A model generated the notes under the pieces. That model did not search any database and was not told where the DNA came from. It worked only from the letters and a program-made list of their open reading frames with translations. From positions 1-35,218 of the forward strand of contig JBFMCO010000015.1 of NCBI GenBank assembly GCA_040754495.1: a DNA stretch of 35,218 nt. Reading direction: 5' to 3'. This document shows positions 27,021 through 29,988 of this stretch, piece after piece; positions within the stretch are counted from its first letter, which is position 1; each line of letters starts with the position of its first letter. A program made the translations under genes and the position numbers. The stretch is from Candidatus Micrarchaeota archaeon. Lineage in GTDB: Archaea; Micrarchaeota; Micrarchaeia; Anstonellales; Bilamarchaeaceae.

Positions 27021-28186
27021 GCCGCTATTTCGGCGGATACGGAGGGCAGTTCGTGCCCGAGACGCTTGTCGGCCCGCTCGCGGAGCTGGAGGCGGGATAC
27101 GCCAGGCTGAAAGAGGACGACGGCTTCAGGAAAAAGCTGGCTGCATATCTTGAGAGCTACGCAGGCAGGCCGACCCCGCTTTATCTTGCCGAGAGGATGA
27201 GTGCGCATGCCGGCGGCGCGAGGATTTATCTCAAGCGCGAGGACCTCCTGCACACAGGAGCCCATAAGATAAACAACGCAATCGGGCAGGCGCTCCTTGC
27301 CAAGATGATGGGGAAGAAGAGGCTGATAGCCGAGACCGGCGCCGGCCAGCACGGCGTCGCGACCGCTACGGCGGCCGCTCTGCTCGGCCTCGAGTGCGAG
27401 GTTTTCATGGGCGCGATTGACGCGAAAAGGCAGGAGCACAACGTGTTCAGGATGAGGCTGCTTGACGCCAAGGTCATCGAAGTCGATAGCGGCTCGAGGA
27501 CGCTGAAGGACGCCATAAACGAGGCGATGCGGGATTACGCCCTGAATTTCCGGGATACGCATTATCTCATAGGGTCGGCGCTCGGCCCGCACCCCTACCC
27601 GTCCATGGTCCGGGATTTCCAGTCCGTGATTGGGAGCGAGGCGCGCAGGCAGGCTCTCGAATCCGAAGGCAGGCTGCCGGACGCGCTTGTCGCGTGCGTG
27701 GGCGGCGGGAGCAACGCCATAGGGCTGTTCCACGCTTTCAGGGACGACGATGTCAGGATGGTCGGGGTGGAGGCAGGAGGCAGCGGGAAACTGCACGCAG
27801 CCCGCCTCACAGGCAAGGCGAGGGTCGGAGTCCTGCACGGCATGAAGACGTTCGTCCTGCAGGACCTGGACGGCCAGATAGGCGAGACGCACTCGGTTTC
27901 GGCAGGACTGGATTACTGCGCAGTGGGGCCCGAGCACGCGTTCCTCAGGGAGATGGGCAGGGCTGAATATGTGGAAGCCACCGACGCGGAAGCGCTCGGT
28001 GCGTTCAGGGCGCTGTCTTCCCTCGAGGGGATAATCCCTGCCCTCGAGAGCGCGCATGCGGTCGCGCACGCGATGAAGCTCGCAAAAGGGATGCCCGGGG
28101 GCAGCTCTATTATCGTCAATCTTTCAGGCAGGGGGGACAAGGACGTGGCGTATGTCAAGGAGTTGATAGGGGGTGGCCGGGCATGA
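27017..28186 (+). CDS. trpB: Tryptophan synthase beta chain (TrpB1)
   Basis: [18 protein letters not shown] site, [15 protein letters not shown]; ATGA overlap with trpC. Confidence 0.96.
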
Positions 28187-28962
28187 GGGGGCTTTTCAGG
28201 AAACCGGCGTTCATGCCGTACGTCTGCTGCGGGGACCCGGACGAAGAGGGGACGGTCCGGCTTGTCAGGGCGCTTGTGGAAAACGGCGCGGATGCAATCG
28301 AGCTCGGCATCCCGTTCTCGGACCCGGTTGCCGACGGAAAAACCATACAGCACGCCTCCCAGAGGGCGATTGGCGGGGGCATGAGCCCGGGAAAGGCGCT
28401 CGCGCTCCTCTTCCGGCTGAGGGGGGAGGGCATCCGCATCCCGGTGTTCGTCATGACGTATTACAACATAGTGTTCTCGAATGGCGTCGAGGATTTTGTC
28501 GCGAGGGCGGGGAAGGCAGGCGCCGACGGCTTCATCATCCCGGACCTGCCGCCGGAAGAGGCCGGGGAGATGGAGGCCGCATGCCGGAGGACTGGCCTTG
28601 CGCTCGTACGATTCATCACGCCCAACTGCAGCGAAGCGCGGATAAGGCGGATAGCCGAAAACGCGTCCGGCTTCCTTTATGCGGTGTCGGCGTACGGCAC
28701 GACCGGGGCAAGGGACGGGATGTCGCAGGATGCCATCGGCCTCATCAGGAGGGCGAAGGGCATCACGGGCCTGCCGCTCGTCATAGGGTTCGGCATCTCC
28801 ACGCCGGCACAGGCAGCGGGTTACGTAAAAGCCGGTGCCGCGGGGGTGATTGTCGGGAGCCGCATAACTGAGCTGCACAGGAGCGGAGGGCTGGAGGCGG
28901 TGGCGGCGTTCTCGAAAAGCGTAGCCGGCGCCATTTCCGCTCCGCCTGAGAAGCCTTTATAA
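28183..28962 (+). CDS. trpA: Tryptophan synthase alpha chain
   Basis: [23 protein letters not shown] and GFGIS motifs. Confidence 0.95.
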
Positions 28963-29011
28963 AAACTATGTTCCTAAAATCTATGTAGATAAGTGTCATA
29001 TTGTGGTTCGA

Positions 29012-29101
29012 ATGGAGCGTGCTAAAGCGTCCGGCCCCGCATGGGGATATTCGTTCGGCTTCTTCAGCTTTAGCTATCGCTATCAGGAAAACCACTATTG
29101 A
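29012..29101 (+). CDS. Putative aro-operon leader peptide MERAKASGPAWGYSFGFFSFSYRYQENHY (29 aa)
   Basis: ATG 29012 to TGA 29099-29101. Nine W/Y/F codons fall among codons 11-29. It lies directly upstream of DAHP synthase and overlaps a 13-bp perfect inverted repeat. Confidence 0.7.
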   Translation: MERAKASGPAWGYSFGFFSFSYRYQENHY

Positions 29102-29144
29102 GCGTTTCTTTTCTCCTTGGTTTTCCTGATGCATATGGAGGCTA
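29071..29144 (+). terminator. Candidate attenuator structure: long hairpin plus U-rich tract
   Basis: ATCAGGAAAACCA (29082-29094) is the exact reverse complement of TGGTTTTCCTGAT (29118-29130). The pyrimidine tract TTTCTTTTCTCCTTGGTTTTCC spans 29105-29126. Confidence 0.6.
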
Positions 29145-29175
29145 GTGGTATTGATGAAAAAACGGGATGGTGTTC

Positions 29176-29988
29176 ATGAAAAATCTCAAACTTGCGGCGT
29201 TGAACGGGCATGGGCGGACGGTCGTCCGCGTGGGGCAGGTCAAAGTAGGGCAGGGGTTCACGGTCATTGCCGGCCCCTGCGGCGTGGAGAGCGAGGAGCA
29301 GACGCTCGAGACGGCAAGGGCGGTCAAGGAGGCCGGGGCTGACATGCTCCGCGGAGGGGCCTTCAAGCCCAGGACCTCCCCGTACGCATTCCAGGGGCTG
29401 GGCCTGAAAGGGCTCAAAATCCTCGAGAAGGCGCGGGACGAGACAGGCCTGCCGATTGTCACCGAGGTCATTGACACTCGGGATGTTTCCTGGGTGTGCG
29501 AATACGCGGATGTCCTCCAGATAGGGGCGAGGAACATGCAGAATTTCTCGCTGCTAAAGGAGGTCGGGAAGGCGAACAAGCCGGTCCTCCTGAAGAGGGG
29601 CATGCACTCCACCATGGAGGAGTGGCTCAACTGCGCGGAGTACATCCTGAACGAGGGGAACCCGGACGTCATACTGTGCGAAAGGGGCATCCGGACATTC
29701 GAGACCTACACGAGGAACACGCTTGACCTGAGCGCGGTGCCGGCCATAAAGGAGCTGACGCACCTGCCGATAATCACCGACCCGACGCACGGGACCGGCA
29801 GGGTGAGCCTCATCCTGCCCATGAGCCTCGCATCGGTAGCCTGCGGGGCGGACGGGATAATAATAGAGGTGCACCGCAACCCGCCCGAGGCCCTCAGCGA
29901 CAAGGAGCAGGCGCTCACGCCGGCCCAGTTCAAGGCCATGATGGGCAAGGTGCGCACCATGCATAAATTCATGGAGGGGCTTTCATGA
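29176..29988 (+). CDS. aroF: 3-deoxy-7-phosphoheptulonate (DAHP) synthase, type I-beta, no regulatory domain
   Basis: [39 protein letters not shown] and DPTH motifs. Start ATG 29176 after GGTG; 29167 is an alternative. Confidence 0.93.

Follow-up and report, generated by a model that had tools for sequence, protein, structure and literature searches.

The first gene of the shikimate operon in the Micrarchaeota genome analysed here is preceded by a short upstream open reading frame (uORF) that is rich in phenylalanine, tyrosine and tryptophan codons. Comparative sequence analysis makes it highly probable that this uORF is an aromatic leader read by the ribosome and embedded in a covarying RNA switch, so that it would act as a sensor of aromatic supply. 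The whole reading, in which the ribosome-sensed leader of the aroF operon mRNA combines the sensor, the switch and a transcription termination output, is one that we favour by a small margin over its being wrong in some part.

Genomic Context of the Leader

The DNA analysed, called the window, is a stretch of 35,218 nucleotides corresponding to contig C15 of a 1.63-Mb metagenome-assembled genome (MAG) of a Micrarchaeota (DPANN) archaeon with a GC content of 59.5%. The leader element is located in a 204-nt gap between trpA (28183-28962) and the gene for 3-deoxy-d-arabino-heptulosonate 7-phosphate (DAHP) synthase. The genes trpD, trpC, trpB and trpA are found on the 5' side of this gap, and those coding for DAHP synthase, aroB, aroD and aroA on its 3' side. 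The features of the region are listed in Table 1.

Table 1. Features of the leader region and the first gene of the shikimate operon (positions in the window)
Feature	Positions	Strand	Sequence	Description and support
TATA-like box	28956..28964	+	TTTATAAAA	Overlaps the trpA stop codon (28960-62); sequence
Whole leader element	28988..29139	+		Match of covariance model R1, 118.3 bits, E 1.5e-24
P0 5' arm (region 0)	29003..29008	+	GTGGTT	3 nt 5' of the uORF start; pairs with AACCAC 29090-95
Leader uORF	29012..29101	+	MERAKASGPAWGYSFGFFSFSYRYQENHY	29 codons and TGA (29099-29101); sequence, composition, conservation
P1 5' arm	29021..29028	+	GCTAAAGC	Codons 4-6; reverse complement of 29067-74; compensatory variants in relatives
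P1 3' arm	29067..29074	+	GCTTTAGC	Within codons S19-F20-S21; pairs with 29021-28
Stem B 5' arm (region 3)	29082..29094	+	ATCAGGAAAACCA	3' part (29090-95) doubles as P0 3' arm; folding, covariation
U-rich tract	29105..29124	+	TTTCTTTTCTCCTTGGTTTT	Stem B loop and 3' arm; candidate archaeal termination signal
Stem B 3' arm (region 4)	29118..29130	+	TGGTTTTCCTGAT	Pairs perfectly with region 3
Conserved block	29142..29156	+	CTAGTGGTATTGATG	After stem B; family consensus YTAGWGGTATTGAT; conserved in alignment A1
aroF (DAHP synthase I family)	29176..29988	+		Gene 1 of the shikimate operon; Pfam PF00793, E 2e-80

The start codon of aroF is probably the ATG at 29176 (MKNLK...) and not the one at 29167, because in several relatives an in-frame TAG immediately precedes the corresponding ATG. 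The tetranucleotide GGTG is present 3 nt 5' of the ATG at 29176. A TATA box similar to the one in Table 1 is found 52-56 nt 5' of the ATG of the uORF in other genomes as well; a strict pattern identifies it in at least 8 relatives, and it is seen by eye in more of them. For this reason, the aro mRNA probably begins with the leader, with the transcription start predicted at about 28986-28990 and a 5' untranslated region of about 25 nt. A motif, TAAGTGTCATATTGTGG, that resembles the family consensus YTAGWGGTATTGAT of the block following stem B is located at this predicted start (28989-29006). The segment from the trpA stop to the aro leader (28960-29011) contains no T-run, and the aro TATA box overlaps that stop. 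It seems possible from the sequence that transcription may run on from the trp operon into the aro leader.

Composition and Translation Signals of the uORF

The initial annotation described a uORF of 29 codons with one Trp, four Tyr and four Phe residues in codons 11-29, and both its coordinates and its composition have been confirmed. These nine aromatic codons extend from W11 to Y24 (29042-29083), with Y29 at 29096-98, and the stop codon lies 5 nt 3' of the 5' arm of stem B. Nine or more aromatic codons never arose when the mononucleotides of the uORF were shuffled 20,000 times, and the same number of aromatic residues is found in only 10 of the 4,555 ATG-ORFs of 20-40 codons present in the whole 1.63-Mb genome. 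As in bacterial attenuators, a short uORF rich in codons for the end products of the pathway is thus located directly 5' of the DAHP synthase gene.

With respect to translation signals, inspection of the sequence 5' of the uORF revealed no canonical Shine-Dalgarno (SD) motif, in agreement with what had been noticed before. SD-like 4-mers precede 24% of the crude gene starts of the genome, as compared with 15% in a control window. The 16S rRNA 3' end, which was sought in order to read the anti-SD sequence, is not in the MAG assembly.

A look through the whole genome (G000) for other leader-like uORFs yielded none that was convincing. The candidates located before genes for a DegT aminotransferase, a PIN protein, an MFS transporter and proteins without a Pfam match were considered unconvincing, and an aromatic ORF on contig C2 was dismissed, since it is part of a divergent promoter region and coincides in part with the 5' end of an ORF on the minus strand (616-1050). 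A separate 17-codon ORF, MAPANAGKAFRFFISFY (L107; G000:C33:17316-17369), is situated 30 nt before a gene of 361 amino acids without Pfam match. Its outline resembles that of the aroF leaders, and the covariance model of the element (R1, see below) does not match it.

Conservation of the Element in Micrarchaeota

The aroF gene was located in 105 related loci and the small ORFs upstream of each were listed. About 45 Micrarchaeota loci possess an aromatic-rich ATG-uORF of 20-40 codons, 60-250 nt 5' of aroF, with a conserved core close to FFSFSY. The covariance model R1, built from 24 of these leader loci, has a single full-length match in the 1.63-Mb genome containing the window. Among 151 genomes sampled across the order, 38 are matched by R1, nearly always once (two genomes have a second, weak match); aroF is present in 47 of them, and 34 have both the gene and the element. 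In 33 of these 34 genomes the element is on the same contig and strand as aroF, 30-290 nt upstream of it, although the leader loci share phylogeny and statistics of this kind, including those on covariation given below, overstate their independence. An aromatic-rich uORF and a covarying stem, which the initial annotation had suggested looking for 5' of aroF orthologues, are therefore both present across Micrarchaeota.

Three loci (L036, L042 and L066, the last one labelled Acidobacteria) have a close aroF homologue and neither a uORF nor an R1 match within the 400 nt upstream. Judging from these sequences, either the element has been lost or the contigs are organised differently.

Selection on the Reading Frame

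Comparison of the relatives indicates that the reading frame of the uORF is under selection and that its peptide sequence is not conserved. In the unpaired, variable loop of helix P1, 165 of the 311 frame-0 codons are aromatic (53%), the values for the other two frames being 5% and 15%. Shuffles of this loop give 51.8 +/- 5.5 aromatic frame-0 codons (17%), with a maximum of 71. In an alignment based on sequence alone, the aligned start codon and the AGC anchor are 45, 48, 51, 54, 57 or 60 nt apart, a multiple of three in 24 of 24 sequences, and the start codon itself is conserved among the relatives. An extra GC-rich hairpin inserted within the uORF is found at L015 (1281-1471), L030 (2256-2441) and L087 (2253-2449), for instance ...FGSGASGQLEAFSF..., and there too the frame is kept.

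The sequence AGC TTT AGC TAT is nearly invariant in the relatives, synonymous sites included. This invariance of nucleotides is due to P1 pairing, and it reflects a constraint on the RNA and not on the peptide. Compensatory changes in P1 do alter the encoded residues (AKA to PKQ, SFS to SFG), and in many genomes a CAG to TAG change removes the QENH tail while the helix is retained. What is conserved in the uORF is aromaticity alone, not the positions of the aromatic residues. A frame that is kept while the peptide sequence drifts is also what is found in bacterial attenuators.

RNA Helices of the Leader

Three helices, called P0, P1 and stem B, are formed by the arms listed in Table 1. The perfect 13-bp stem B (29082-94/29118-30) was already part of the initial annotation, and it turns out to covary across the family. 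The segment 29075-29135 folded alone has an energy of -21.5 kcal/mol (z = -6.2), and none of 200 shuffles was as stable. The 186-nt region folded as a whole is unexceptional (z = -0.16). P0 and P1 together constitute hairpin A, which encloses the whole uORF. Folded alone, the hairpin-A stage of the window does not reach significance (z = -1.33), so that the support for hairpin A comes from covariation and not from energy.

RNAalifold found no structure on a first, gappy MAFFT alignment (A1), because the arms of the helices were misaligned in it. A trimmed MAFFT alignment (A2), to which no structure was fitted and in which the named helices were examined, worked. In A2, P1 and B together are 81.9% paired as compared with 37-51% in slid controls, and their covariation score is 0.262 as compared with at most 0.125 in controls, a value reached in none of 500 shuffles. 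The corresponding figures for the pairing of P0 and P1 are 75% and 37-46%. Individual pairs vary between the sequences: pair 40-107 of A2 is GC in 9 sequences, CG in 5, UA in 3 and AU in 2, and pair 121-164 is GC in 11, AU in 7 and GU in 5. P0 is 73.9% paired across 24 sequences, with pair 32-123 being UA in 11, CG in 4 and UG in 3. Compensatory changes affect 15 pairs among 37 model-aligned sequences. In addition, the cognate arms of P0, P1 and B pair better than arms swapped between genomes (p<=0.0002 for each helix), whereas control segment pairs do not. The frequent G:U pairs indicate that the structure is that of the RNA of the + strand.

Hairpin A and stem B share region 3, P0 and B overlapping at 29090-94, and they are consequently mutually exclusive. 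Their mean energies are close (-32.8 and -36.7 kcal/mol, respectively). A different competitor of stem B, the helix ACCACTA/TAGTGGT (29091-97/29143-49), had been put forward initially. This helix is present in the window but it is not conserved, since region 3 and the block after stem B (block 5) do not pair cognately in the family (p 0.11); the conserved competitor is the upstream helix P0. No convincing helix was found for the conserved block at 29142-56 when partners were sought, the P1 5' arm giving a cognate p of 0.0007 and the others values of 0.1-0.86. In some relatives the block contains UAG every 6 nt. A search of positions 28600-29500 against Rfam with cmscan (E<=10) gave three matches at chance level only and no curated RNA family.

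Ribosome Position and the Choice of Fold

The position of the uORF relative to stem B is maintained in the family: in each of the 24 seed sequences the stop codon falls within the 5' arm of B or shortly behind it, its first base being located between -6 and +17 nt relative to that with which the arm begins. When 37 leaders were folded with a 30-nt ribosome mask, the stall being placed at the aromatic codon before the anchor, a stalled ribosome allowed B to form in 35 of them. With the mask at the stop, B was formed in 3 and blocked in 34 of the 37 loci. Before region 4 exists, P0 is formed in 30 and P1 in 33 of these loci. Folding with a ribosome footprint was a check that accompanied the initial proposal, namely, that a ribosome at the stop opens the stem and one stalled on the aromatic codons lets it form, and the geometry proposed holds across the family. 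As in bacterial attenuators, exclusive helices are chosen by the position of the ribosome, in this case in computational folding. It is thus likely, with some room for doubt, that the leader has two exclusive folds, A and B, switched by ribosome position.

The U-Rich Tract and a Proposed Mechanism

No bacterial-type terminator, that is, a GC-rich hairpin followed immediately by a U-run, is present between the uORF and aroF. After stem B, which is A/U-rich, comes GCATATGG; the U-runs of the stem are located in its loop and 3' arm. This part of the window is 50% T and has only two T4 runs (29109-12 and 29121-24). From the uORF stop to the end of B the leaders are on average 41% T, all 37 loci having a run of at least T4 and 31 of them one of at least T5; the stop codon and U-rich tract described at the stem in the initial annotation are, with respect to the tract in the loop and 3' arm, universal in the family.

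Termination in archaea has been described as occurring at oligo(dT) tracts, which yield 3' ends rich in U, or through the factor FttA, which prefers U-rich nascent RNA; a hairpin is not mentioned in that description (PMC13681488). The genome to which the window belongs carries a full-length FttA/aCPSF1 gene (C14:22466-24346; TIGR03675, 817 bits for a cut-off of 580). Besides FttA/aCPSF1 it possesses three shorter beta-CASP paralogues, one of them with an internal TAG (G000 contigs C14, C28, C18 and C32; L116-L119).

The mechanism that we propose is essentially the model of the initial annotation, with the upstream competitor P0/P1 added to it. The mRNA would start about 25 nt before the uORF. 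If the leader is not translated, hairpin A would fold before region 4 exists, region 3 would be locked and the U-rich tract would remain single-stranded, so that the operon would be off. When aromatic aminoacyl-tRNAs are abundant enough for the ribosome to reach the stop, it would cover region 3, and A could re-form after its release, the result being again the off state. To break A and yet leave region 3 free, the ribosome would have to be stalled on the Phe, Tyr and Trp codons, as expected when these aminoacyl-tRNAs are scarce; B would then form once region 4 emerges, turning the operon on. In the presence of B the tract would be hidden and RNA polymerase would continue into aroF; in its absence the single-stranded tract would lead to early termination, either via FttA/aCPSF1 or at the oligo-U itself. 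That the output is regulated transcription termination at the U-rich tract, as these steps suppose, is a proposition to which we give even chances.

Some features fit this mechanism less well. The T-runs of the window do not exceed T4, a weak signal for intrinsic termination in archaea. Stem B leaves the first U-run unmasked, since this run is in its loop. B would also have no control over intrinsic termination at the U-run of region 4, a segment that the polymerase would still enclose at that moment. For this reason, the model leans on a factor that acts after the RNA has emerged. With respect to the sensor, the uORF has no Shine-Dalgarno motif, and its AUG is inside P1 in many relatives.

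Alternative Explanations

Two alternatives keep the sensor and differ in the output. The same sensor and A/B switch could operate on a terminator of bacterial style, constituted by hairpin A and a U-run just after region 3; a stalled ribosome inside A would prevent termination directly and B would only lock the read-through state. Most loci do have a run of T5-T7 located 2-15 nt after region 3, and hairpin A forms before region 4 in 30-33 of the 37 loci. In some genomes A would be extended by a 5' A-tract that pairs with the U-run, this pairing being strong in L070 (-16.8 kcal/mol), L039 (-12.9) and L037 (-9.6) and weakly cognate overall (p 0.015). However, in about one quarter of the loci there is no U-run between regions 3 and 4, the sole T-run being inside region 4, and the window has only TTTCTTTT at the position following region 3. 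This alternative also leaves no strong role for stem B, which is the best conserved helix (mean -20.4 kcal/mol), and archaeal termination is described without hairpins (PMC13681488), so that we regard it as unlikely. We give a similarly low probability to a switch that would act, like translational attenuators, on the translation of aroF, on re-initiation or on the stability of the mRNA. The absence of a bacterial-type terminator, the short T-runs of the window and the statement that post-initiation control of transcription is not known in archaea (PMC8448881) are in favour of it. On the other hand, aroF starts anywhere from 15 to 222 nt after the end of B, the element has no conserved pairing with the aroF start region (aro and block 5, p 0.11), and the ribosome-binding region of aroF shows no notable structure in the window (z = +0.40).

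The third alternative dispenses with the sensor: the uORF would encode a small conserved protein, or its frame would be incidental to a structured RNA without coding function, such as a riboswitch or an sRNA. The invariance of AGC TTT AGC TAT points to selection on the RNA and not on the peptide, and the lack of an Rfam match would be compatible with a new RNA class. Nevertheless, incidental coding is hard to reconcile with an aromatic enrichment that is specific for one frame, with indels that are all multiples of three and with a conserved start codon. A functional peptide is in turn at odds with the residues altered by compensatory changes in P1, the QENH tail that is cut off and the aromatic positions that drift. 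We consider this explanation very improbable. The reading that we prefer continues to be a ribosome-sensed leader that controls termination at the U-rich tract.

Significance for Gene Regulation in Archaea

DPANN archaea are usually regarded as auxotrophs. If the leader is a sensor as read here from its sequence, some of them would regulate the synthesis of aromatic amino acids according to supply. Attenuation and antitermination were considered not known in archaea by Blombach et al. 2021 (PMC8448881), and a 2025 perspective describes direct functional evidence for archaeal transcription-translation coupling as scarce (PMC13681488). Our literature searches for a leader-peptide attenuator in archaea found none. 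The sensing of aromatic supply by a ribosome on this leader is very probably an instance of a kind of control that has until now been established in bacteria alone. The further claim, that it is a working archaeal attenuator of a design unseen in bacteria (a bare U-rich terminator, a hairpin antiterminator and a three-helix ribosome switch), is a serious possibility to which we give slightly less than even odds.

The element is conserved, covarying and frame-preserving, and its geometry is only sensible if the ribosome reads the leader during RNA folding. Were the proposed mechanism true, Micrarchaeota would have functional transcription-translation coupling and would regulate a biosynthetic operon after initiation. 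The leader offers a concrete object, accessible to mutation, on which to ask whether ribosome position controls RNA polymerase in archaea. It also raises the question of how an RNA structure could gate a termination machinery that relies on U-tracts and not on hairpins.

Comparison with Known Attenuation Systems

In bacteria, attenuation by leader peptides is textbook knowledge. The nearest bacterial aroF homologues are 72-79% identical to the archaeal protein and are found on contigs of Bacteroidota/Ignavibacteria, Syntrophorhabdaceae, Desulfobacterales and Spirochaetota. These bacterial genes (L064, L067, L068, L073, L078, L079, L088, L090, L100 and L104) are also preceded by leaders rich in Phe, Tyr and Trp, for instance MNMFKRYYLYYYPRARD... 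and ...YYYFWYWYGK..., and in this respect they resemble the archaeal loci. However, they differ in having strong GC hairpins with T5-T10 runs about 50 nt later, and in sequence they bear no relation to the archaeal element. R1 has no match at the leaders of the bacterial aroF loci, and homology between archaeal and bacterial leaders is therefore not supported. Taken together, these sequences point to transfer of the aroF family between domains and to widespread, apparently uncurated attenuators of bacterial aroF genes.

In translational attenuators, such as those of the ermC type and the poly-Cys uORFs of mycobacteria, the gene that follows has its ribosome-binding site made inaccessible by an alternative structure. 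The start region of aroF is unstructured in the window and shows no cognate pairing (p 0.11).

Among experimentally studied systems, the aroR leader of Corynebacterium glutamicum is the nearest case, as described in the account of Neshat et al. 2014 given in PMC11802643. This leader contains Phe and Tyr codons and precedes an aroF operon, ribosome stalling at these codons raises transcription of the operon, and the same account describes it as a transcription attenuation system. The archaeal element resembles it in having a short aromatic leader ORF and an operon in which DAHP synthase comes first. It differs from aroR in the absence of a GC-rich hairpin with a U-run, in its nine mixed Phe, Tyr and Trp codons and in a uORF that is wholly enclosed by a hairpin.

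The tnaC leader of Escherichia coli provides a different parallel. In that system the position of the ribosome controls the access of Rho, and the nascent TnaC peptide serves as the sensor of free tryptophan. The likeness is that nascent RNA would be exposed to, or hidden from, a termination factor (here putatively FttA/aCPSF1) by the position of the ribosome on the leader. In contrast to tnaC, the signal in the archaeal leader is codon composition, and the role of FttA is putative.

In the trpL-trpE and pheL-pheA leaders of E. coli, which PMC11802643 also covers, the terminator is hairpin 3:4 together with a U-run, and the antiterminator is 2:3. The archaeal element has in common with them a three-state logic (off when untranslated, off when fully translated and on when the ribosome is stalled), exclusive helices that share a strand, and a stop codon placed in such a way that the terminating ribosome covers the shared strand. 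Unlike its E. coli counterpart, however, the archaeal 3:4 helix would form on stalling and holds the U-rich tract in its own loop and 3' arm, so that it would hide a termination signal rather than create it. The parts of the trp attenuator would thus be inverted in the archaeal leader, the proposed terminator being unstructured and the proposed antiterminator a hairpin.
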